Positions 3,608-14,154 are shown, counted from the stretch's first letter. The stretch: DNA of 64,000 bases from an uncultured Candidatus Micrarchaeota archaeon (GCA_963714085.1 OY970229.1:960001-1024000); one strand, 5' to 3'. Numbers and translations are program-made. Notes: a model not told the origin generated them from the sequence alone.

Positions 3608-4534
3608 TCAGAGGTTGACCTTGAGGCCGAGCTCCTTCTTGAGCTCGCGGTACCTGTTCCTGATGGTGACCTCGGTCACTCCTGCGACGTCGGCGACCTC
3701 CTTCTGGGTCTTCTTCTCTCCGAACATCGCGCTCGCGATGTAGAGCGCCGCGGCGGCCACGCCGGTCGGTCCCCTGCCTGAGATCAAACCTTTCTTGAGC
3801 GCCTTCTTTATTAGCCTGGTGGCCTCCTCCTGCACCTTGCCGCCCAGCCTGAGCGCGGTCGCGAACTTCGGCACGTACTGCGCCGGGTCGGTGAGCGGGA
3901 CGTTCACGTCCAGCTCGGTCTTCAGGAACCGGTATGCCCTGCCGATCTCCTTCTTCTCTATGCCGGACGCCCTGGATATCTCGTCCAACGTCCTGGGTAT
4001 GCCCTGCATCCTGCAGATGGCGTAGATGACCGCTGCGACCACGGATTCGATCAGCCTTCCGCGGATGAGCTCCTCCTTAACCGCCCTCCTGTAGAGGAGC
4101 GCGGCGGACTCCTTGATGTTCTCCGGAAGCCCCAGCGAGGATGCCACGCGGTCGAGCTCTGCTAGCGCGATGACCAGGTTCCTCTCCATGGACGTTGCGA
4201 TGGACACCCTCTTGTGCCATTTCCTCATCCTGTAGAGCTGGGCCTGCTTCTTGGGCGATATCTTCCCGCCCCTGATGTCCCTGTTATATTGGTCGATCTC
4301 GGTCACGAGTCCCTTGTTCGGCCTCATGTACTTTATCGGAGCGCCGCCCCTGGCCCTCTTGCCCTTCTGCTCGGCGTCGAAGGCGCGCCACTCCGGACCT
4401 AGGTCTTGGATGTTCTCGGCGATGATGAGCCCGCACTGGGCGCAGAGTACCTCTCCTTTCTCGTAGTCCCTGATGAGCCTGCTCCCCTTGCACTCAGGGC
4501 ATTTTGATACAGTCGTAGCTGCTTGTGTTGCCAT
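3608..4534 (-). CDS. tfb: Transcription initiation factor IIB
   Basis: CPEC...CAQCG Zn ribbon, GPEWRAF B-reader, two cyclin repeats, VTEVTIRNRYREL. Confidence 0.97.
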   Translation of the reverse strand: MATQAATTVSKCPECKGSRLIRDYEKGEVLCAQCGLIIAENIQDLGPEWRAFDAEQKGKRARGGAPIKYMRPNKGLVTEIDQYNRDIRGGKISPKKQAQLYRMRKWHKRVSIATSMERNLVIALAELDRVASSLGLPENIKESAALLYRRAVKEELIRGRLIESVVAAVIYAICRMQGIPRTLDEISRASGIEKKEIGRAYRFLKTELDVNVPLTDPAQYVPKFATALRLGGKVQEEATRLIKKALKKGLISGRGPTGVAAAALYIASAMFGEKKTQKEVADVAGVTEVTIRNRYRELKKELGLKVNL

Positions 4535-4597
4535 GTCAAAACCTCCCGATTCGCATAATAAGTTTTATAAATGTTACTCAGACGGGGTTTATATACC

Positions 4598-4676
4598 TGC
4601 GCTTTTTTCGGGCCTTGCACATAAACTATGGCCTGCACATAAATTGGGGGGTTTGCACATAAATTAAGGGAAAAAA
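4598..4676 (+). repeat. Left direct repeat with 3x TGCACATAAA
   Basis: Motifs at 4616, 4634, 4654; aligns without gaps to 13483-13561. Confidence 0.92.
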
Positions 4677-4685
4677 ATAATAACT

Positions 4686-4925
4686 TCATATCCGGTGTTT
4701 CTCAATGAAGGTAAGGAGTTCTCCTATTGAGTGAAACATTGCGCTATCCCCGCTTTGGGCGTGTTCGACACTTCCTTCCCAAAAGTGTCTAGTGAACCTT
4801 TTGCTCAGGGCGTTTGAGCGTATGTCGTGCCCTCTTGCCGATAGTTTAGCCTTGCTCATATCCCAAAGCCGGATTACAAATTTCGGCATGTCGCCCTTTC
4901 TTTTTACTTCGATTGTACTCTTCAT
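4686..4925 (-). CDS. Small basic hypothetical protein
   Basis: 79 aa ORF with GAGG RBS, 10 bp downstream of 4936-5343. Confidence 0.6.
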   Translation of the reverse strand: MKSTIEVKRKGDMPKFVIRLWDMSKAKLSARGHDIRSNALSKRFTRHFWEGSVEHAQSGDSAMFHSIGELLTFIEKHRI

Positions 4926-4935
4926 GTAATCGCCT

Positions 4936-5343
4936 CTAAACTTTCCCTTTTTTCGCCTTGAAGCTCTTCGCGTACTCCTCCAAAGACTTGCCAGTCAGAT
5001 CCTTGACTTGCTTGTCTGCCCAATAGCTCAAACTGACCTTATTGTCATGAGTCCACTGGAGGCTCGCACGCTTTCCGGTGAAAAATCCGGCAGATCCCTT
5101 CTTATCCTTGCCCATCTCGACCCAAAGTTCGTCGACCCGCTCTTTTGGTATCGGAGCTCCGTTAGCCTCGTTGTAGATTCGGCTCCAGAGCTCCATGCGG
5201 TCCTTCATCCAGCTAGGAATCTCGGCTTCGAGTCCCTCCTCCTGAACCTGCAATTCGGCCAAAAGAGTCGACGCTTCTTCCAACAGTCCCTGTATTTTCT
5301 CGATTTTTTCTTTTTCCTTGGTCATAAAATCCTCCTCCGCCAT
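4936..5343 (-). CDS. Hypothetical protein (N-terminal coiled coil)
   Basis: 135 aa ORF downstream of an AT-rich promoter region. Confidence 0.7.
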   Translation of the reverse strand: MAEEDFMTKEKEKIEKIQGLLEEASTLLAELQVQEEGLEAEIPSWMKDRMELWSRIYNEANGAPIPKERVDELWVEMGKDKKGSAGFFTGKRASLQWTHDNKVSLSYWADKQVKDLTGKSLEEYAKSFKAKKGKV

Positions 5344-5480
5344 ACTTATTTTCTTATTAATATTATATAGTATAGATATACTGTTTTATAAATATATCAT
5401 TTTTATCAAGTTTTGAGAATAGAACAATAAAAAAGAATGTCGTCTAAAAGTGTTTTTAAATCTCTTCTTCGTAAGATTAT

Positions 5481-5567
5481 TGGTGTTCGGTACCTTTGGG
5501 GAACCCAAGGCCCCTAACGGGTTCGATCGATGAGATCGCCAACGGTAATGAGCCAAAGGGTGCACCA
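5481..5567 (+). ncRNA. Structured leader / ncRNA candidate upstream of the RNase H-PIN gene
   Basis: Nested complementary segments TGGTG/CACCA, CCTTTGG/CCAAAGG, GAACCC/GGGTTC, CGATC/GATCG; TTTTTAAA just upstream. Confidence 0.5.
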
Positions 5568-5577
5568 CATTGTATTC

Positions 5578-7065
5578 ATGGCATCCAAAGTCTACAGCAT
5601 CCCCAGCAAGGATGCATTTCTCGCCTTTAAACAGAGCATTTCGACTCGTTTCACTTTAGATAGTCTGGCGCCCAAACAGCACATGGAAGATTCTTTTTCA
5701 ATCAAGTCCCCGAGCGGCAATCTCAAGGTCGATTACTATGCGTCCGGAAAGCTCGTTTTACAAGGCAACGAAGGCATGCCGGTTTTTATAGCAATGAAAT
5801 CCGAGTTGGACAAGGCGTTCACACCTCTAGAAAAGCAAAGCCCCGCAGAAGCGGCAATCGACTTGTTTTTAATAGATAAAAAGTTCTTTATAGGAGGAGA
5901 TGAAGCAGGAACCGGAGAAACGTTTGGGAGCGCCTTTGTCGGCGTCATTGCATTCGAAAAAGAGTCCCTAAAGCAGCTCGCCGATTTCATTAAAGTGCGC
6001 GATGTGAAAAATGAGGGTAGGCAGGGCATCGGAAGCTTATTCCGTGCTGCCAAAAAACACATGTCAGCTTACAGAATAACCCCGATTACGGCATACCAGC
6101 TCGACATAAACAACAAGAATGTTCTTTTGGACGAGACATATGTTTCGCTTTTAAAAGAGCTGAAAGAGTATCTGCCCGCTTCCTGCATCATCATAGATGA
6201 TTACGGCGCAGGCCCACACTTACGTAATTTTTTGAAGAAATGCGAAGCAGAAGGCGCCCGCGTAATATTGGTCAACAAAGCCGATGCAACATACCTACCG
6301 TCGATGCTTGCTTCTGTTGTTGCCAGGGATGCGCGCCTGGAGGACATGGAGAAGTTGTCAGCAGAAAATGTCCTGATTAATAACGAGACAAACGAAAGCA
6401 TCGCCTTCACAAGCGGAAGCCCCTCAGATTCCAGCACGGAAAAATGGCTTCGGGAGTATAGGAAGATTAATCCGCACTCAGATTTTCCGCCTTTTGTCAG
6501 GAGAAAATGGGCTAATGTAATTCGGATTGAAAAAGAAGTCCCCAAGTCCAGCTTCGAGTACGCTTATACTTGCGCAAACTGCAAAGAAAAGGTGGGCAAA
6601 TCGTATTTTACCTTTCATAAAATAAAGAACGCGACTGAAATGCTATGCGCATGCGGTGCACCCATCGGAAAAAGCGAGATTACTACGACGTTCGGTAAAT
6701 GCTCGTTGGTACTAGATACGAGTGCCGTGATTGGCCGGATTCTTTCAAAGGACTTAGAGACATCGAGGTTAACGGCGGGCATGAAGGTTATACTACCTTC
6801 GTGTCTATATGAAGAATTAGACAAAAAAGAACCGGACAAAAGAAGGGGGGCTCTTCGCGAAATCGATTTTCTGAAGAAGAAAAGCGACGAAGGACTTATT
6901 CGGTTTGAAGAAGCGGATGTGTCTGCATGGGTTGGCATGTCATATGATGATCAAATCAAATATCTAGCGCAAACAAAAAAGGCAATTCTTTTGACCCAAG
7001 ACCGGAATCTCGCTGCTTGGACCGCCCTGGGGACATTCGTGTTCGAGATTAAGGTATTCGGCTAG
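5578..7065 (+). CDS. RNase HIII-like nuclease fused to a Zn finger and a C-terminal PIN domain
   Basis: YYASGKLVLQG (RNase HIII N-domain), GGDEAGTGETFG, IIDDY, KADATY..LASVVARD; CANC..CAC; VLDTSA..YEEL..DD..LTQD PIN residues. Confidence 0.8.
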   Translation: MASKVYSIPSKDAFLAFKQSISTRFTLDSLAPKQHMEDSFSIKSPSGNLKVDYYASGKLVLQGNEGMPVFIAMKSELDKAFTPLEKQSPAEAAIDLFLIDKKFFIGGDEAGTGETFGSAFVGVIAFEKESLKQLADFIKVRDVKNEGRQGIGSLFRAAKKHMSAYRITPITAYQLDINNKNVLLDETYVSLLKELKEYLPASCIIIDDYGAGPHLRNFLKKCEAEGARVILVNKADATYLPSMLASVVARDARLEDMEKLSAENVLINNETNESIAFTSGSPSDSSTEKWLREYRKINPHSDFPPFVRRKWANVIRIEKEVPKSSFEYAYTCANCKEKVGKSYFTFHKIKNATEMLCACGAPIGKSEITTTFGKCSLVLDTSAVIGRILSKDLETSRLTAGMKVILPSCLYEELDKKEPDKRRGALREIDFLKKKSDEGLIRFEEADVSAWVGMSYDDQIKYLAQTKKAILLTQDRNLAAWTALGTFVFEIKVFG

Positions 7066-7176
7066 TTTGTTTGTCTATAAAAGACTGGCGATGCGGGCTC
7101 CAAGTAACCAAAAACTAAACTAACAAGAAGCCAGGCGCGGTTATTCTACTCCCAACGACTTGACGAACTCCAGTCG

Positions 7177-9855
7177 TTATTTTGGTGGTTTAAACGCCCT
7201 AAGAATGAATTGTGCTTCGGCAGTATCAAGTTTTAAGGTGGATTCTAGTTTATGCCTCGCATCTATCCTCTTTTTCTTGGCTTCCTGCTCCAACTTCTGA
7301 GCGTCCATCAAGTTATTAACAAGCTCTCTAGAAAGATCTGCTGGGGGTAGAGGCATTTTAATAGAAGAAATTGTGTTCCATTTAACCCTTGTTCTATTGA
7401 CTCCAGTTGCAGTTAATAGTAAATCTGCCCGAACTTCTGGTGTTCGTAATAGCATCCATACGATGTATGGATCAAAACCAGCTTTTGCTTTCAAAATAGT
7501 GAATTCTTTAGCTACTACACAACCGTCAAATTCGGGCAGAACTACTGCCGCCGCACCATACGTTGCGCTGATGTGGCTAATAACAATTTGGCCAGTATGA
7601 ACACGATACAATTCTGGATATTTGCAATCCGATGCTAACTGTTCATCTCCCTTTCTTGCAAATCCGTCATATGTAACTAAGAGAAACGAGACACTTTCAC
7701 TAGATTCAGAAGTATCGATAACATCTTCTTCACTTGGTTCAATAGGTTCGACAAGTTCGGATAGACTAGCTACTCGAAGACCCATATTAGTCCAGTTACG
7801 AATCTGACGGCCTGGAGTTTCAAGGCACGATTTTACATCCATTCTATCGGCGATGCGGGAGGACGGCACTACGAATTTCCTGACTGATGGGTCACCATTT
7901 AGGAATCGGTGGAATAGTTCGACAACCGTTTTTATTTCAGAAATGGCGTTTTGCCGATTAATCGCATCAATGGGAAGAATTCTTTGACGTGCAGGGTCAT
8001 CAAGTCCGATATGTATGCAACCATACATGAATACAGAACCTTGCTCTTGCATGGCTCCCTCTGTTTTAGCATCGTCTTCATCAGCTTTTTTTTCGAGGTA
8101 TAGTAGAGAGGTTTTTACTCTTGCTTGTGAACGCTGAAATGCATCTCCGGGTAGGGAGATGACTGCTTTGACAATGAACTTTTTTCGTATAAAATCTCTA
8201 ACCCAACTCATATCAGAACCACTAAGTATGCCGTCATCGATAACTGTTACCATCCTTCCGCCAGTTTTCAGGAGGTCATAGTATCGTTCGAGAAACATGA
8301 TGCTTGATTTCAAACCTTCTCTCGGAGTTTTCTGGCCATTTTCTAAGTTAAAACCTAGTTCATATTGATCAAGAACCTTAGCCTCGGAAGGCGTTTTTCG
8401 GTCATACGTTTTAGCAAACGGTGGGTTGGTTATAACTACATCTGCAAATCCCTTGCGCCCGATTAATTTCGCTAGTTCTTTTTTTTCAACTTTGACTTCT
8501 AAACTATCATTAGTCAGTATCGTCAGCTCTTTGTCTAGCACATCAGCTTCAAAGATTTTACTTGCTCCATCTCCGTGCAAATGCATATTCATCCGAGTTA
8601 AACGGGACATGTTGGGTTCTTTGCCAGCATCCACTCCGAATAGCTGATTATCGGCAATCGCTTTTTTCATCTCTGCTTTTTGTTTTTGGGATAACGACGA
8701 GTTTGCATCTATTTTAGCCCATATCTCTACCAATGCCTCGATTAAGAATCCGCCCGTTCCGCAACACGCATCTAAAACAACATCACAACGATTTCGTTCG
8801 AGTTGAATGTCTGCAAGGCGTGTCCCCAGCTTAACTATGCTTCTTGGAGTAAAGAATTGACCCAAATCTTTACCTCGCATTGTTGCGTTCAGGAACCTTT
8901 CAAAGAGACGACCATTCAAGTCTGCTTCGATACCGAAAAGATAGATGTGTTCTAATTTCCCTACGACTCCACTTATGATTTCCGGGCTGAGATTGATGTG
9001 ATCATTAGCCTCAAAAATGCGTTTCGTAGTCCCATCTCGGATGGCCTTTTCAAGTTCTTCTAATAGTTCATGGAATTGAATCGTATCCATGGGATTTTGG
9101 GCATCACTTTCTCTGCTTTTAATCCATGAAGAAGAAAAATGAACATCCTCAGCTTTCACATTAAACTGTTTTAGATTAACTAACTCAGGATATTTCGCTC
9201 TGATAAAGCGGTCAGATAAAAGCTTCAGAAAGACTAGCTTTACAAATTCTTCAAAACCCGCAGCTTGACTGATATTACCTTTCTTGTAGATATACTGATG
9301 GCACCAAGCAAAAGTGGCATTGAGTGATTCGAGGGCGGTGGGCTTAAGAAGTTCGTGCATGTCCGTAGCTGGCATTGGCTCTTTCGCTACTAGGTTTTCT
9401 CTGCTCATTAGCCGCTGCAAGTCTTTGAACTTGGGATTAGAGTCAGTAAAGTCATCAAAGTTCATCTTCACGAGTGGCTTATCAGAATCCCACTCATATA
9501 GTTCAGTAAAAACACCATTTGTGATGAGAAAAAACTGAACTGGATTTTCATTTTTGAACGTTTGATTTAGCATCAGGCAGTAACCTGCGCATTGTGACAG
9601 ATACTTGTGTATCGGCTCTGATGGGGATTTGGCATCAATTACTAATCGAGGTTTAGTTTTCAACTTTATGATGTAGTCCGGCGTATATGGAACCTTTTTG
9701 CTTCCCAAAGAAACAACGACGCTCTTAATCTGAGTTTTTGGGATTATCTCACTGTCTTTGAAGCCCAAATCTTGCAGCAATCGATTTAGAAAAAACTGTT
9801 CTACTGACGCCTCGTTCGATAGATTTGTCGAAGCGCAGTATTTGTTTTTGCTCAT
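7177..9855 (-). CDS. Fused restriction-modification enzyme (HsdR_N-like nuclease, N6-adenine methyltransferase, target recognition domain; type IIG-like)
   Basis: NEASVE..PDY..IDAK nuclease motif, GQFFTPR, VLDACCGTGGFL, NPPF, HsdS-like C-terminus. Confidence 0.9.
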   Translation of the reverse strand: MSKNKYCASTNLSNEASVEQFFLNRLLQDLGFKDSEIIPKTQIKSVVVSLGSKKVPYTPDYIIKLKTKPRLVIDAKSPSEPIHKYLSQCAGYCLMLNQTFKNENPVQFFLITNGVFTELYEWDSDKPLVKMNFDDFTDSNPKFKDLQRLMSRENLVAKEPMPATDMHELLKPTALESLNATFAWCHQYIYKKGNISQAAGFEEFVKLVFLKLLSDRFIRAKYPELVNLKQFNVKAEDVHFSSSWIKSRESDAQNPMDTIQFHELLEELEKAIRDGTTKRIFEANDHINLSPEIISGVVGKLEHIYLFGIEADLNGRLFERFLNATMRGKDLGQFFTPRSIVKLGTRLADIQLERNRCDVVLDACCGTGGFLIEALVEIWAKIDANSSLSQKQKAEMKKAIADNQLFGVDAGKEPNMSRLTRMNMHLHGDGASKIFEADVLDKELTILTNDSLEVKVEKKELAKLIGRKGFADVVITNPPFAKTYDRKTPSEAKVLDQYELGFNLENGQKTPREGLKSSIMFLERYYDLLKTGGRMVTVIDDGILSGSDMSWVRDFIRKKFIVKAVISLPGDAFQRSQARVKTSLLYLEKKADEDDAKTEGAMQEQGSVFMYGCIHIGLDDPARQRILPIDAINRQNAISEIKTVVELFHRFLNGDPSVRKFVVPSSRIADRMDVKSCLETPGRQIRNWTNMGLRVASLSELVEPIEPSEEDVIDTSESSESVSFLLVTYDGFARKGDEQLASDCKYPELYRVHTGQIVISHISATYGAAAVVLPEFDGCVVAKEFTILKAKAGFDPYIVWMLLRTPEVRADLLLTATGVNRTRVKWNTISSIKMPLPPADLSRELVNNLMDAQKLEQEAKKKRIDARHKLESTLKLDTAEAQFILRAFKPPK

Positions 9856-10190
9856 TTCCCCGCCTTCCTTATCCGATCTTTCGACGCTTCAATAACCTTT
9901 TGTCCTACAGGGCAACTACTAAATTCCTTTTTGCTCCAATCAATCATTTTGTGCTCATCAAAGAGCATATCACAATCATCACAAATATACGCATGAGCTA
10001 TTATCGAAACAAGACCGGAATGCGCGTCACCTTCGGAATCCATGCTGCAAAAAGGGAAGTCGCCTCCATTTAATCTAGGAGAAGCATGGGTGCCACACCA
10101 TCCGGTTACATCTACGATACAGCCGCTTCCACAATTTGGGCATTTGCCTTCTAGAAATGCTTTTTTATTAAACTTTTCGTCACTTCCCAT
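9852..10190 (-). CDS. Cys-rich (Zn-binding) hypothetical protein
   Basis: CPNC and CDDC motifs; ATGA overlap with the RM gene. Confidence 0.65.
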   Translation of the reverse strand: MGSDEKFNKKAFLEGKCPNCGSGCIVDVTGWCGTHASPRLNGGDFPFCSMDSEGDAHSGLVSIIAHAYICDDCDMLFDEHKMIDWSKKEFSSCPVGQKVIEASKDRIRKAGK

Positions 10191-10195
10191 TTACC

Positions 10196-10426
10196 TCACC
10201 TAATCCACCAAATCCAGATACCTCTCCCGGCCTTCAGTTGTTTACCATTAATGCGGTTATCGCCTCGTAACATAAGTAAGCGATGAAAAACCTTGGTGCG
10301 TGTGATTTTCTTATCTTTAAAACGGTCTACGATTTCCATAGTTTCAAGAGGTTCTTGTGCCATTCTTATGATGGAATAAAGATTTTCACGAACAAGATCT
10401 TCTTTGCCGTACTTTTTTCCATCCAT
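10196..10426 (-). CDS. Small winged-helix protein, possible regulator of the RM operon
   Basis: 76 aa; PLETMEIV...TRTKVFHRLLML...GIWIWW helix-wing pattern. Confidence 0.6.
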   Translation of the reverse strand: MDGKKYGKEDLVRENLYSIIRMAQEPLETMEIVDRFKDKKITRTKVFHRLLMLRGDNRINGKQLKAGRGIWIWWIR

Positions 10427-10546
10427 AGATAAAAGTATATATTGATAGATTTATGAATCAACCTTTCCATAAATACTTCAAAATATTAATCGATGAATGT
10501 ATAGAACTAGCTATAACTCATAAAACAGAAGAAGGCACAAAGAGAG

Positions 10547-11335
10547 CTATGGTTTCTCGGGTTTTGGAGGGTAATAGACCCCGATTATTAGCCACTCATT
10601 CCAATTACTCTCTGTTCCTACAAAAAAGTACACGTCCTTTTTAGATAAAAATTCCGTCTTATACTTCTGGACACATTTTTGAATTGCGGTTTCTTCAGTT
10701 CCATATTTCTTTAGCATCTGCCGATATAACTCCAACAATTCCCAGTCTTCTACCATCATATCATGACCAGGACAGGTAGCATCACACCTAAACTTATATG
10801 CAAAACGGTAAGGGATTTTGTCTAATGGACTTTTGTATGGTTCCCCCCCCAATGTCTTCTGCTTTCCTTCGACCAAATCTTTTTCCCAACCTCTTGCTTT
10901 TTCAATTGGTTCGGCATAAAAGTCGTCGATAAATTCTGGGTGGATGAATCCCAAAGACGTGTGGTCCTTATCATACTCGGTTTTAAGTGCCTCTATTGAT
11001 GGCATTAAGAATGGTAATAAGAACGTGTTTCGTTTTTTCCAGTCGCCTTCTGTAGGGATATACTTTCCAGTACGTACAATCGTATCGTCCTTGACTTTAT
11101 GACTTTCTTTCCGTTTGAACTTTTCATTCGGGTTGTGCTCCGCATTTACCTCGATCAACTCGAATTTATGAGGTCTTTTTTCATAAGGTAAATCGAAAAA
11201 TCTTACCGGGTATATCCTAATCCATTCTTTAGCGTCAATGTCAATTCCGGCCATACAAGCCGTTCGTTCATATTTTCGACTAAGGTTGGGGTATGTTTTT
11301 ACCAAAAGAAGAACCTTCCTTCTTTTGAATGTCAT
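10547..11335 (-). CDS. Conserved hypothetical protein associated with DUF488 (OB-fold-like)
   Basis: KTYP..S.KY.ETxCxAG..WIRIYPV-type N-terminus; coupled to the DUF488 gene by ATGA overlap. Confidence 0.65.
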   Translation of the reverse strand: MTFKRRKVLLLVKTYPNLSRKYERTACMAGIDIDAKEWIRIYPVRFFDLPYEKRPHKFELIEVNAEHNPNEKFKRKESHKVKDDTIVRTGKYIPTEGDWKKRNTFLLPFLMPSIEALKTEYDKDHTSLGFIHPEFIDDFYAEPIEKARGWEKDLVEGKQKTLGGEPYKSPLDKIPYRFAYKFRCDATCPGHDMMVEDWELLELYRQMLKKYGTEETAIQKCVQKYKTEFLSKKDVYFFVGTESNWNEWLIIGVYYPPKPEKP

Positions 11336-12135
11336 ATATCTACCACCCTGAACCCATCCCGAATCAATTTCTTTTTTATGATGCTCCTATGGCATTTGTT
11401 AACGTCCTTTTCAAAACACATCATCACCGTTTTCCTTACCTGAGCCAACCCTTCAAGATCCAACAACTGTTCTTGAGATTCGGGTTTTGATAGTGCTTCT
11501 TCGTACTCTTTAAAAAACTCAGGATAATCCCACCCCTCCCAAAGCTTATGTCTAAGTTCCCTTGGCGATCCTAAAAGCGGGAAGTGTTTGTATACAATCC
11601 CGTTTTCCTGAAGTGCTTTCGACAACGCTGATTTTGCAAAACCATTTTTCCTACTAAAAGCGAGTTCTCTTACGTCGATTACCTGCTGAACCCCATTTTC
11701 CTTCAAAACACCGACAAATTCTAATAGATTCTTGCCTTCGTATCCGATGGTAAATACTACAGTGTCGCTTTTATGCGGGAGATACCAGTAAGTCAAGGTC
11801 CCTTCCTTCCTTCTTTGAAGCTTAACCTCTTCTTCAAGTCGCCTAACCCATGAGTTGTTTGGGACTTCTTGTGGCAGACCGAGTTTGGTTTTTATATCAT
11901 GCCACGTCATGCCTGCCTTTGTTTTGTTCAATAAGTTCGTGATCTTAATTTTGAACTCTTCATACGTCAATACGTCCGATTTTATTACGACAAGTCCTTC
12001 CGTAGTTACATGAGTTTTGAGGTTTTGGCCTTCTTTCCATCCGAGTAATGCTATGTCGCTGGGTGGGATGGTTATTACCCATTTTGTATACTCTTTATCA
12101 TCGACCTTTCTGGATAGCTGTTTTTGTAATTGCAT
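11332..12135 (-). CDS. AbrB-like + helical domain + DUF488 fusion protein
   Basis: KWVITIP..LLGWKEGQ (AbrB-like); FTIGYEG, IDVR, SRKNGF, LGSP, MCFE..CHR (DUF488). Confidence 0.85.
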   Translation of the reverse strand: MQLQKQLSRKVDDKEYTKWVITIPPSDIALLGWKEGQNLKTHVTTEGLVVIKSDVLTYEEFKIKITNLLNKTKAGMTWHDIKTKLGLPQEVPNNSWVRRLEEEVKLQRRKEGTLTYWYLPHKSDTVVFTIGYEGKNLLEFVGVLKENGVQQVIDVRELAFSRKNGFAKSALSKALQENGIVYKHFPLLGSPRELRHKLWEGWDYPEFFKEYEEALSKPESQEQLLDLEGLAQVRKTVMMCFEKDVNKCHRSIIKKKLIRDGFRVVDI

Positions 12136-12144
12136 ATCTCTGTC

Positions 12145-12236
12145 TTAGGTACCAATATTTATATATCTTGGTAGGTACCTACATAGTATTTAAATCAATA
12201 GGTACCTAATATATCTGTAAGCTGTTAGGTACCTAA
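12145..12236. promoter_or_regulatory. Divergent promoter with four TAGGTACCTA-like palindromes
   Basis: GGTACC cores at 12148, 12174, 12201, 12228, interleaved with TATA-like TTTATATA and TTTAAA. Confidence 0.8.
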
Positions 12237-12244
12237 GATATGAA

Positions 12245-13471
12245 ATGATACACTGGATGATTGAAATGCCTGAACAAAACCCACCCTGCAAGCACTGCGG
12301 CTCTCCCTTCGTCATCCGAGACAGCGTAATCCAAACCGCCGAATGGGAGAACGGGATATACACCTGCTGCCGATGCATGAGGAGCTTCACCCAAAAGGTC
12401 GAGAAAAAGATGGAAATCGAAAGACCCGAAGGCTTCCAGTCCTTCCTCCCTCCGCCCAGCCCTACAGCGCCTATCCAATGGTCCCAATACAACGAGGCTC
12501 AGGTGCGCGAGAAGCTCCTGTTCCTCGAAATCCTCCAAGACCTGTGCTCCAGGCTTCCGGACGGAGAACCGGGCAAGGTAGGCCGTCCCAGGGCTTCCAC
12601 AAGAGAGATGGTCTTCTGCATGGTAGCCAAGCTCTACGAGGGACTGTCCTCCCGCAGGGTGTCTTCGGACCTCCAAATAGCCGCCCAAAGGGGCCATATC
12701 GCCAAGGTCCCGCATTTCAATACTGTCCTCAAGTACTTCAACGATCCCGGCATGGCGCCGCTCCTGACCGGGCTTATCCAGCTCTCATCGCTTCCTCTGA
12801 GGGACTTCGAGACCACGTTCGCGGTGGATGCAAGCGGCCTCAGCTCCGCGTTCTATTCGAGATGGTTCGATTACAGGTTCGGGCATCTCGACGGAAGGGA
12901 AAGCAAGGCCCACGACTGGATAAAAATCCACGTCGTCTGCGGGGTGAAGTCAAACATCGTGACCTCAATTGTTGTCACCGACGGCAAGACCAGTGACTGC
13001 CCCCAATTTCCCGCGCTCCTGAAGACCACGGCGGAGAACTTCGACGTCAAGGAAATCACGGCGGATAAGGGTTATTCAAGTCGGCGGAATATCGACGCGG
13101 CATTCGAGATCGGCGCCGTCCCGCTCATCCCATTCAAGTCCAATACTACGGGAAACGCGGGCGGAAGCCTAGCCTGGAGCAAGATGTACCATTACTACCA
13201 GCTGCAAAGGGAGGCTTTCCTGGCTCGGTACCACCAGCGGAGCAACGTAGAAAGCACGTTCAGCGCCCTGAAAAGGAAGTTCTCGACCAAGCTTATGCTG
13301 AAAAACGAGCCCGCCCAGGTCAACGAAGCCCTTGCCATGATCCTTTGCCACAACATCTGCGTCCTGATCCGGGAAGCGTTCGAGAACGGGATTTCTACTG
13401 AGTTCGAGGGGGTTGCACATAAAGTTCCGGTGCTGCACATAAAGGAGGGGATAACGTTTGGAAATCGCTAA
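12245..13471 (+). CDS. DDE transposase (IS4/IS5-like, DDE_Tnp_1 type) with N-terminal Zn ribbon
   Basis: AVDASG, WIKIH, TADKGYSS, YHQRSNVESTFSALK (Y-2-R-3-E-6-K); CKHC..CCRC. Confidence 0.9.
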   Translation: MIHWMIEMPEQNPPCKHCGSPFVIRDSVIQTAEWENGIYTCCRCMRSFTQKVEKKMEIERPEGFQSFLPPPSPTAPIQWSQYNEAQVREKLLFLEILQDLCSRLPDGEPGKVGRPRASTREMVFCMVAKLYEGLSSRRVSSDLQIAAQRGHIAKVPHFNTVLKYFNDPGMAPLLTGLIQLSSLPLRDFETTFAVDASGLSSAFYSRWFDYRFGHLDGRESKAHDWIKIHVVCGVKSNIVTSIVVTDGKTSDCPQFPALLKTTAENFDVKEITADKGYSSRRNIDAAFEIGAVPLIPFKSNTTGNAGGSLAWSKMYHYYQLQREAFLARYHQRSNVESTFSALKRKFSTKLMLKNEPAQVNEALAMILCHNICVLIREAFENGISTEFEGVAHKVPVLHIKEGITFGNR

Positions 13472-13561
13472 TTTGTGTGCAATGCCCTTTTTTCGGGATT
13501 TGCACATAAACTAGGGGCTGCACATAAATCGGGCTGCTTGCACATAAAATAAGGGATAAAA
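13414..13561 (+). repeat. Right-end motif array and right direct repeat
   Basis: TGCACATAAA at 13414, 13434, 13501, 13519, 13539; inverted variant TTTGTGTGCA at 13472. Confidence 0.92.
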
Positions 13562-13578: not shown

Positions 13579-14154
13579 CTATCTACCGAACCTTCTCTCG
13601 AGCAGCTCGGCGGGCGGCTTGGTGAAAAGATAGTACTTCTCGTGGCCCTCGAGCTCGTTGAGTATCCTGTGGCTGAAGACCGCTACCGGGTCGGCAAGGC
13701 TCGGCACCCTCTTGTGGAGGTCCGCGAAGCTCTCGAACGGAGTCTTCTCCCGCTCTGTGAGCAGCGCCTCCATGGTCTTCTTGCCTATGCCTGGGAGCAG
13801 GTCCAGGGTGTGCACCCTTATGGATATGGGCTTGGCCCTGTTGAGGAAGTCCACGAACTCCTTCTCCCGCTCCGTTATCGCCTTCTTCACTATGTTCGGC
13901 AGGAATTCCCTCGCGCCGTTTGTGAGGTCCTCGTATTTTATCCTGCCCTTGATGTGCTCGACCTCCTGCCTGCCCTCCTTGCCCACGCACACCTTCTGGC
14001 CTATCACTATGGCCGCTTCCGGCTTGACCGACGCCTCGAGCAGGGTGAAGAACCTTGTGCCCAGCAGCTGGACCATGGGCTCCCTCTTTATGGCAGCCGC
14101 ATGGCCAAGTGGCATGTATTCGACGACCCAGGCGTAGTCCTCCATAGTGAACAT
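13579..14154 (-). CDS. DUF655 family putative RNA-binding protein
   Basis: FTLLE, LLPGIGKK helix-hairpin-helix, KYYLF; conserved position after rpl21e-rpo4. Confidence 0.92.
   Translation of the reverse strand: MFTMEDYAWVVEYMPLGHAAAIKREPMVQLLGTRFFTLLEASVKPEAAIVIGQKVCVGKEGRQEVEHIKGRIKYEDLTNGAREFLPNIVKKAITEREKEFVDFLNRAKPISIRVHTLDLLPGIGKKTMEALLTEREKTPFESFADLHKRVPSLADPVAVFSHRILNELEGHEKYYLFTKPPAELLERRFGR

Follow-up and report, generated by a model that had tools for sequence, protein, structure and literature searches.

What placed a set of defence-like genes between tfb and the DUF655 gene of an uncultured Candidatus Micrarchaeota archaeon, and why does this island appear to lie between two long direct repeats? 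A first-pass annotation of the window (the whole 64,000-nucleotide stretch of DNA analysed here) had described the island as bounded by a gapless 79-nt direct repeat with about 11 mismatches, each copy holding three perfect motifs at 18 and 20 bp spacing. Re-alignment of 4598-4676 with 13483-13561 gave the same gapless repeat, with 11 mismatches and three perfect TGCACATAAA copies per repeat, spaced 18 and 20 bp apart. The mismatches do all lie outside the motifs, with 0 in the 30 motif positions (chance 0.003, for a motif defined after the fact). Genome-wide scatter of the motif, which the annotation had named as a result that would count against it, is not what was found: 8 of the 10 perfect TGCACATAAA copies in the 1.57-Mb genome sit at the tfb-DUF655 island, and matches with at most one mismatch number 11 in the window against 1.64 expected (0/100 shuffles). 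Our overall explanation, which we consider probable, is that an IS903-related DNA transposon with defence cargo targets archaeal promoters and enters the DNA upstream of them at one fixed register. The features of the host locus and of the element ends are as follows.

3608..4534, minus strand: tfb (TFIIB family), intact host gene (Pfam TFIIB and Zn_Ribbon_TF; 99% identical in G001)
4588..4595, minus strand: TATA box of the distal tfb promoter, reading TATATAAA towards tfb (11.2 bits)
4596..4601, minus strand: BRE position, the 6 bp between the target 9-mer and the TATA box
4602..4610, plus strand: left copy of the target duplication (exact match to 13487-13495; single copy at the empty G001 site)
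4611..4676, plus strand: left end, a 15-bp tip and three motif copies (4616, 4634 and 4654, that is, offsets 5, 23 and 43)
13414..13486, plus strand: right end, motif copies 13414 and 13434 in the transposase gene and the inverted 15-bp tip 13472-13486
13487..13495, plus strand: right copy of the target duplication
13496..13561, plus strand: stump, an isolated left end derived from an older sibling element (motifs 13501, 13519 and 13539; orthologous lone stump in L170)
13579..14154, minus strand: DUF655 host gene, intact (Pfam DUF655; adjoins tfb in G001, G002 and L170)

The direct repeats turned out not to be the bounds of the island. The true element runs from 4611 to its right boundary at 13486 (8,876 bp) and has inverted tips (4611-4625 and 13472-13486, matched at 13 of 15 positions with 2 mismatches) and an exact 9-bp target duplication (4602-4610 = 13487-13495). 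Three further motif copies lie at its right side: those at 13414 and 13434, in the same direction as the left array, fall within the 3' end of the transposase gene, and the third, at 13472-13481, is inverted. The right 79-nt repeat consists of 4 nt of right-end tip, the 9-nt duplication and a second left end from 13496, and the first 4 nt of the repeat alignment are host DNA that resembles the right tip by coincidence. Read from the sequence, the apparent direct repeat is two left ends of an IS903-like element stacked at one spot. The complete elements of 32 relatives are 2.6-14.8 kb long, and the family also includes MITEs of 57-96 bp. Ordinary inverted-repeat ends on homologues had been put forward as evidence against the first-pass interpretation, and the homologous elements do carry such tips together with 9-bp duplications, the latter exact in 32/32 paired elements in a search that had allowed at most one mismatch. 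Family ends are asymmetric, with three motif copies at offsets 5/23/43 on the left (recurring in 50/50, 36/50 and 31/50 complete elements, respectively) and, on the right, one inverted copy at the terminus together with a reversed pair spaced by 20 bp. As anticipated, motif arrays co-occur with homologous transposases; the motif copies are predicted to be transposase binding sites, helically phased as in multi-site ends.

The contents of the element bear out the description of a cargo-carrying element with one DDE enzyme that delivers defence genes, as 4611-13486 encodes a single DDE_Tnp_1 transposase and defence-like cargo (a restriction-methyltransferase-specificity protein and a PDC-M19 pair).

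4686..5343, minus strand: two short cargo ORFs of 79 and 135 aa (no Pfam/PADLOC match; the 135-aa protein is blank in the atlas)
5530..7065, plus strand: fusion of an RNase HII/HIII-like nuclease with a weak PIN-like domain (RNase_HII 1.4e-16, PIN_4 0.014; atlas cluster 0.96)
7177..9855, minus strand: fused restriction-methyltransferase-specificity protein, type IIG-like (HSDR_N_2, N6_Mtase; MTase and specificity models)
9852..10426, minus strand: two short cargo ORFs, one of 112 aa with a weak zinc ribbon and one of 76 aa
10547..12135, minus strand: candidate defence pair, PDC-M19B-like and PDC-M19A-like (DUF488) (PADLOC 1.5e-62 and 2.9e-37; Pfam DUF488)
12146..12235, no strand: four operator-like palindromes (TAGGTACCWA) spanning the region in which the DUF488 gene and transposase promoters diverge
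12245..13471, plus strand: DDE transposase, IS5-family/IS903-like, 408 aa, with an N-terminal CxxC..CxxC zinc ribbon (PF01609, DDE_Tnp_1, 1.2e-20)

A profile scan detected no second recombinase-like ORF between the repeats, in agreement with the earlier claim that the DDE_Tnp_1 protein is the sole recombinase there. Residues D195, D274 and E336 of the transposase are invariant across 66 sequences, and a fold search returned general DDE folds only, with the Tn5 transposase as the best full-length match (TM 0.43). Its start codon may lie a few codons downstream of 12245. A defence role is putative for the RNase HII/HIII-PIN-like protein. The PDC-M19B/PDC-M19A-like pair recurs in elements L369 and L392, and the N-terminal part of the PDC-M19A-like (DUF488) protein looks AbrB-like by eye. 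All four copies of TAGGTACCWA in the genome fall within 12146-12235, 26-27 bp apart, and their sequence suggests operators. Restriction-modification genes are carried by 21/32 elements.

Comparison with orthologous sites reveals three states of the tfb-DUF655 interval: empty in G001 and G002, stump alone in L170, and element plus stump in the window. The expectation of one repeat copy at empty sites held for L170, which has a single decayed left end, and failed for G001 and G002, which have none; there the 9-mer and promoter are present with no motif array. The anchor of the insertion is the distal tfb promoter, whose TATA box is conserved in G001, G002 and L170, most relatives having twin promoters upstream of tfb. 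Flanks of the L170 stump are ~92% identical to the window. The window stump differs from the live left end at 10 of 66 nt and from the L170 stump at 6, and these three left ends are mutual nearest neighbours among 139 (6-10 mismatches versus at least 11), a closeness that a self-attraction or conversion model would produce likewise. As the sequence shows, an older sibling at the tfb promoter decayed to a 66-bp left-end stump and a newer sibling later inserted between promoter and stump, creating the apparent direct repeat. A second before/after pair (L192/L211 versus L214) has 0 mismatches over 330 nt of the older element. These comparisons also bear on whether the duplication could be an assembly artefact, for which the only point is that the right junction is unbridged among the contig pieces listed. 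This explanation has a negligible chance of being correct, given that the repeat copies differ at 11 positions, that L170 has an orthologous stump, that a Logan contig from run X1, which may be the source sample, crosses the left junction (3945-4825) without a difference, and that the layout of right end, 9 bp and further end recurs in L088, L100, L214 and others. Two other runs, X2 and X3, contained almost nothing of it.

What the insertion sites of the family have in common is a promoter. A promoter matrix was trained on 647 upstream regions from this genome, element excluded. At 27/32 complete elements identified through their transposase it detected a BRE-TATA promoter pointing away from the element, and in each case the target 9-mer lies upstream of the TATA box with 6 bp in between. 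The BRE starts directly after the 9-mer, and the promoter stays intact after insertion. Other offsets to 46 account for 0-5 transposase-found elements each, against a background of 1.6% of intergenic sites. Among left ends located by their pattern, the register reaches 7 bits or more in 20/32 genome sites and 40/100 metagenome sites, compared with 0.3% and 0.7%, respectively, at other offsets. No scoring promoter was present on either side of 5/32 transposase-found and 4/16 pattern-found complete genome elements, and a hunt for more tips at the register in the G000 genome gave no clear excess (10 tips there, and 1-11 at the remaining offsets). The promoter-facing end of the 27 register-positive elements is the left in 13, the right in 13 and both in 1 (8 left and 4 right in the close clade); the right-end cases rule out strict orientation towards the promoter. 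We also ruled out that the element enters at the start site of a promoter directed into it, the BRE lying on the element side. A long ORF starts 15-90 nt downstream of 15/26 targeted promoters versus 8/25 on the opposite side, so not every target is demonstrably a working promoter. Could near-random insertion followed by selection leave survivors only upstream of promoters? The intergenic share of this genome is ~9%, and survivors must crowd there, but selection gives no single-base register, and with 27/32 elements at one offset, 0 at 1-7 and 13-20, and at most 2 at 21-46, we regard this account as very improbable. Altogether, we are highly confident of the anatomy and promoter register of the element as read from its sequence.

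Promoter anchoring also accounts for reuse of the tfb site. Since insertion is anchored to the promoter, a newcomer at an occupied promoter lands between that promoter and the older copy, which gives the order right end, 9 bp, older end. In 6/32 elements another end lies past the duplication, in every case on the promoter-distal side (4 clear, 2 doubtful). The alternative is the att-like or self-targeting insertion of the first-pass annotation, in which a resident left end attracts the newcomer through stump-bound transposase or circle recombination. It would fit the exactly one repeat copy at the L170 site, the close kinship of the live left end and the two stumps, and a frequency of tandem ends (6/32 sites and 5/105 metagenome left ends) above uniform choice among hundreds of promoters. 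Yet 26/32 filled sites have no stump, the stumps are mostly of another motif subtype than the new element and are confined to the promoter-distal side, the 9-mers are exact copies of each other whereas 10/66 positions distinguish the left ends, and the empty orthologous sites offer 9-mer and promoter without an array. We therefore judge self-targeting improbable, although a stump may have a modest helper role, and attribute repeated insertion to the neighbouring BRE-TATA promoter rather than to likeness to the element's own end. The observation in the first-pass annotation is partly confirmed and its interpretation partly supported.

How the register is measured is a separate matter, and here we lean, by a small margin over even chances, towards the TBP-TFB complex on BRE-TATA as the ruler. 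Four lines of sequence evidence favour a host ruler. First, the target logo follows the host promoter logo: the family logo, conditioned on the promoter matrix used and drawn from surviving insertions that selection has filtered, matches the host BRE, and at TATA position 7, A prevails both in promoters of this genome (77%) and in close-clade targets (75%), and T both in host promoters of the distant clade (65%) and in the targets there (83%). Second, a strong BRE is enriched at targets (21/24 versus 100/188 host sites; Fisher p 0.002, with kin not independent). Third, the register is common to transposases with an N-terminal zinc ribbon, a SWIM domain or neither, and the same register in SWIM-type members disfavours the zinc ribbon as the targeting domain. 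Fourth, the register is found in 0/4 complete non-archaeal-looking elements (including L119 and L124, with bacterial-type flanking genes), a control that is small and GC-rich. A bacterial host with the register (P0029, labelled Jorgensenbacteria) was rejected: its core is that of L122, whose flanking genes are archaeal, and the contig is probably mis-binned. It is also conceivable, though rather unlikely, that the transposase itself reads A-tract/TATA sequence 7-23 bp beside the cut site and that TBP and TFB are unnecessary. Some targets have the register with respect to TTTAAAAA copies that belong to end arrays of other IS elements (L200 and L152), some are not upstream of a gene, and targets are more stereotyped than host promoters, all of which would suit direct readout. 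This reading sits poorly with a register that persists through N-terminal domain exchange and 36-70% core identity, a logo that shifts with the host, a BRE read on the correct side only, and absence of the register from bacterial relatives with the same end motif. Complex prediction with transposase, TBP and TFB core scored 0.00 and carries no weight either way.

With a TBP-TFB ruler, the complex would either contact the transpososome or offer bent, protein-edged DNA for capture. The element would gain a safe landing spot, and each targeted promoter would become a slot that can be filled again with restriction-modification or other defence genes. If the two left ends recombined, the island could be lost and a new stump left in its place; the contigs examined contain no excision joint, which carries no evidential weight. 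Our joint reading, offered tentatively and at slightly under even chances, is of a DPANN DNA transposase with a TBP-TFB ruler, a prokaryotic cut-and-paste counterpart of Ty3. Strong promoters would serve as ordered, refillable defence slots in which the newest element lies next to the BRE and older ones are pushed away and decay, left-end stumps would permit pop-out, and the same core would target repeat arrays in bacteria.

The family matches 59 of 400 sampled genomes of the phylum (an unpublished genome left out of the count) and has 1 match in a viral collection. The end pattern occurs in 0/151 genomes of the phylum of G411, the bacterial control. Searches of the openly accessible literature returned no report of archaeal promoter-register insertion, and the words 'promoter' and 'TATA' are absent from the main text of a 2026 archaeal IS survey (PMC13343696). 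Analogues of such targeting are already published for bacteria (TnGBS/ISLre2) and yeast (Ty3). What the present family adds is a base-exact, testable landing rule for a widespread archaeal transposon, and a route by which tiny-genome archaea may gain and swap restriction-modification genes while their genes and promoters stay intact. In uncultured archaea, promoters could also be mapped from the insertion sites. Were TBP-TFB the ruler, all three domains would have promoter-guided integration, carried out by different enzymes, and a 400-aa protein that on its own, with ends of 60-70 bp, moves 9-15 kb to promoter-adjacent safe sites would be a useful tool.

Among known systems, Tn7/Mu-type elements have asymmetric ends with arrays of transposase sites, carry cargo and insert in tandem at one site, using a TnsB/MuA enzyme with an AAA+ regulator and making a 5-bp duplication. 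The window element resembles them in its asymmetric arrayed ends, cargo and tandem insertion and differs in its 9-bp duplication and IS4/IS5-type enzyme; no ATPase, target-selector or TnsB/MuA-type ORF was found among the 9 island proteins scanned. A DDE_Tnp_1 transposase with an intact triad is a feature that it shares with the IS903 group of the IS5 family. On plasmids, the proteins most similar to a family member are IS5-family transposases, among them ISPam1, ISPko1 and ISEcl3 (~25% identity), and a relative bears the name 'Is5 family IS903 group' in its source. The tip start GGCTTTG is common to L234 (ISPam1), L235 (an annotated IS5-family element) and the family consensus, and L235 also has a 9-bp duplication. 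L234 and L235 are 1.05-kb single-gene IS, whereas the window family comprises cargo carriers and MITEs and, unlike IS903-group IS, has arrayed subterminal motifs, an additional zinc-ribbon or SWIM domain and the promoter register. The window transposase falls under the curated cut-off of every IS5 model (NF033579, 118.7 versus 140 bits), and the family forms a long branch in a quick tree, taken for placement of groups only.

PMC3942029 describes DDE elements (TnGBS ICEs, the ISLre2 family and the ISKra4 group, together p-MULT 3/4) inserted 15-17 bp upstream of the sigma-A -35 box, and proposes the initiation complex as the means. These share a fixed distance upstream of promoters with the window family, measured from sigma-A promoters there and from BRE-TATA here, but have a Mutator-like transposase, while the window family has only DDE_Tnp_1 and IS4/IS5-type model matches. 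According to the same paper, p-MULT 3 (TnGBS, ISLre2) is oriented, whereas the window family (13:13:1) is not, like ISKra4, and the archaeal case, ISH6, has an AT-rich duplicated target with no spaced register. In yeast Ty3 and S. japonicus Tj1, integration is positioned by TBP and the TFIIB-family Brf1 of TFIIIB (PMC4600332). Those are LTR retrotransposon integrases acting at Pol III genes near the start site, whereas the window family has a DNA transposase and inserts at protein-gene promoters, upstream of the BRE, with a presumed TBP/TFB contact. Ty3/Tj1 offers the closest mechanistic model for a TBP-TFB ruler.

The pair of stretches at 4598-4676 and 13483-13561 recorded in the first-pass annotation is real, as the gapless 79-nt alignment shows 11 mismatches (about 11 had been claimed) and three perfect motifs in each stretch, but it was misread. 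The stretches had been taken as long direct repeats ending an att-like island, in contrast to the short inverted tips and few-bp duplication normal for IS4/IS5 elements. Homologous elements at loci L043 and L045 instead have inverted GGCTTTGCAC-type tips with 9-bp duplications on both flanks, and so does the window element, which carries an IS903-like DDE transposase and defence cargo between the host genes tfb and DUF655:

4602-4610, 9-bp target duplication, first copy
4611, start of the left tip of the element
13486, end of the right tip of the element
13487-13495, 9-bp target duplication, second copy (same 9-mer)
13496-13561, second left end (stump), orphaned from an older sibling element

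Because the right end at 13486 is followed by the 9-mer and then by another left end, the "direct repeat" amounts to a duplication plus a left end, present twice. Perfect copies of TGCACATAAA number 10 in the 1.57-Mb genome, 8 of them at the element island, and the window holds 11 motif matches versus 1.64 expected by chance. The first reading overlooked three copies: those at 13414 and 13434 fall in the final codons of the transposase gene, and the one at 13472-13481 is inverted. The last 20 residues of the transposase (13402-13471) are coded across motif copies of its own right end, which gives the close clade its conserved AH..P.LHI tail. GC content is 42% in the cargo, 56% in the transposase gene and 57% in the genome. 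Another end of the element family, with TGCACCTAAA motifs, lies outside the window at about 223,527-223,600 of contig C1 of the same genome (G000).

The expectation that motif arrays accompany transposase homologs was borne out by an end plan common to the family, derived from 50 complete elements longer than 1 kb. Left-end copies begin at offset 5 in 50/50, offset 23 in 36/50 and offset 43 in 31/50, and the right end has a terminal copy in 43/50 along with a reversed pair 20 bp apart (33/53, 43/63 or 22/42). In MITEs of 57-96 bp with exact duplications, a single array does for both ends. We infer that the motif copies are putative transposase sites.

In the same-genus genomes G001 and G002, tfb adjoins DUF655, and G001 has a single copy of the 9-mer next to the same TATA box. 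The metagenome contig L170, with flanks approximately 92% identical, has the promoter, the 9-mer, a lone left-end stump and then DUF655; in the window, the entire element sits in front of an L170-like stump. The prediction of one repeat copy at empty sites therefore holds for L170, with its single stump, but not for G001 and G002, which have no array. The window 9-mers are identical but the two left ends differ at 10/66 positions, none in the motifs, and this comparison of sequences argues that the element is a recently transposed sibling and not a copy of the stump. The L170 stump is equidistant from both window left ends (6 and 6 differences), and L170 could be the pop-out product of a tandem arrangement. 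A second before/after pair is formed by L192/L211, with a left end at a promoter, and L214, with an identical element (0/330 differences); in L214 a newer element that bears a transposase lies ahead of this older one, its right end followed by the 9-mer. In G001 (locus L014), the interval from the 9-mer to DUF655 contains a hairpin-forming stretch and ~160 bp that neither the window nor L170 has; in both, the stump occupies that place. A 394-aa ORF without a Pfam match follows cdc6 at 1349-2533 and has a more diverged version in L170.

The target 9-mer ends 6 bp upstream of a TATA box, with the BRE between them and the promoter pointing away from the element. A left-end pattern search matched 35/401 phylum genomes, G223 counted in (reversed control, 4), and at least 120 metagenome stretches. 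With duplicates and tandem cases removed, information in the flanks peaks at -10 to -23, a BRE plus TATA box read away from the element. A promoter matrix trained on 647 upstream regions of the window's genome, element excluded, has the same columns, with the TATA start mostly 29-31 nt ahead of the start codon. At one register, 20/32 genomic and 40/100 metagenomic pattern-found left ends reach 7 bits or more, versus 0.3% and 0.7%, respectively, at other offsets. To avoid pattern bias, the phylum was also searched with the transposase core, and 60 of 82 matches were fetched (omitting 7 already in hand, 4 from G223, 1 within another region, G376 and the 9 weakest). Paired ends with a 9-bp duplication were located in 32/60, many of the other 28 being at contig ends. 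A promoter stands at the register in 27/32 elements (facing the left end in 13, the right end in 13 and both ends in 1), a count that includes related, nonindependent elements with target 9-mers varying between sites; a scoring promoter was absent at 5/32. Offsets 8, 9, 11 and 12 give 4, 5, 2 and 1 elements because the TATA box is AT-repetitive, remaining offsets give 0-2, and 1.6% of background intergenic sites score. Long ORFs start downstream of only 15/26 targets, versus 8/25 on the other side, which, like the 5/32 elements lacking a scoring promoter, counts against promoter placement. A further end lies directly past the duplication in 6/32 elements (4 clear cases and 2 doubtful ones) and is promoter-distal in every one, as expected if the promoter places each newcomer. 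Self-targeting, in which an element would choose sites resembling its own end, was the earlier proposal and is improbable as the main cause of site choice.

Of the two tfb promoters in the window, the distal one anchors the element and is conserved in G001, G002 and L170. Such twin promoters are usual in relatives, as a tandem BRE-TATA pair ~24-40 bp apart (window 4535-4601; loci L237-L265) conserved among Micrarchaeota relatives, and possibly serve autoregulation. Near 176,580 of C1, outside the window, a candidate tip lies at a promoter register.

As read from the sequences, insertion geometry, the 9-bp duplication and stacking polarity are established. The target starts where, presumably, the TFB footprint on the BRE ends. 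TBP-TFB bound at the promoter would act as the ruler, by contact or by capture of bent DNA, and we lean somewhat toward a host factor of this kind setting the register. Direct readout of the target by the transposase is the less probable reading. Against it, the target logo shifts along with the host promoter logo and strong BREs are enriched among targets, the register is unchanged when the N-terminal domain is swapped and at identities of 36-70%, and it is found in 0/4 complete elements of relatives that share the end motif and lie on contigs with bacterial-type genes, where short repeat arrays are the sites. None of the three observations is decisive, since available promoters would shape the logo under both models; together they favor the host ruler.

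Loci L117, L119, L124, L128, L129, L139, L187 and L219 have the same end motif, mostly on GC-rich, bacterial-looking contigs, and their left-end flanks consist of tandem and inverted repeats of REP- or STRR-like type, not TATA boxes. At L136, L152, L200 and L231, left ends lie within or beside the end arrays of a sister IS subtype whose TGTTTAAAAA motif is in some cases at the TATA register, and at L178, a SWIM-type element, the left end abuts an apparent 3′ half of a tRNA gene. The CPR label of P0029, a transposase recorded under Jorgensenbacteria, probably reflects mis-binning, its core being identical to that of the transposase at L122, a contig that carries archaeal genes.

The transposase has 408 aa, an intact DDE triad and an N-terminal zinc ribbon that is swapped for SWIM or missing in other family members. 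Its structure model is confident (pLDDT 87), and a fold search returned general DDE folds (Tn5, ISCth4). The window cargo combines an RNase H-PIN fusion and a PDC-M19A/B-like pair with a restriction-modification fusion protein. The 32 elements encode 109 cargo proteins that reach 150 aa; among these, PADLOC (cut-off 1e-15) found matches in 23/32 elements, and 21/32 have a methyltransferase or restriction gene. PADLOC gave no match for the fusion at 5530-7065 (RNase HII/HIII-like, zinc finger, PIN-like; atlas cluster of 240 members), a candidate undescribed defence nuclease. Four TAGGTACCWA palindromes at 12146-12235, 26-27 bp apart and found nowhere else in the genome, lie across the divergent promoters that serve a DUF488 gene and the transposase; the equivalent place in L043 and L045 holds a small regulator gene, divergently oriented, with palindromes of its own.

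A literature search of titles and abstract openings, with supplements and subscription journals outside its scope, found no promoter register of this kind in archaea, and the portions of a 2026 archaeal IS survey available to us (PMC13343696) describe none. New from the window locus is the empty/stump/filled series at one orthologous promoter; the second before/after pair, one-sided stacking and the host-tracking target logo are also new. The nearest named kin of the transposase are IS903-group elements, which have the tip and 9-bp duplication in common, and the window element belongs to a related clade outside that group's size and model-score limits. TnGBS/ISLre2 elements insert upstream of sigma-A promoters at a fixed distance (PMC3942029), and TBP and Brf1 guide integration of Ty3/Tj1 (PMC4600332). 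The window element works like the former, sharing a fixed promoter distance, and probably like the latter, yet stands outside either group.
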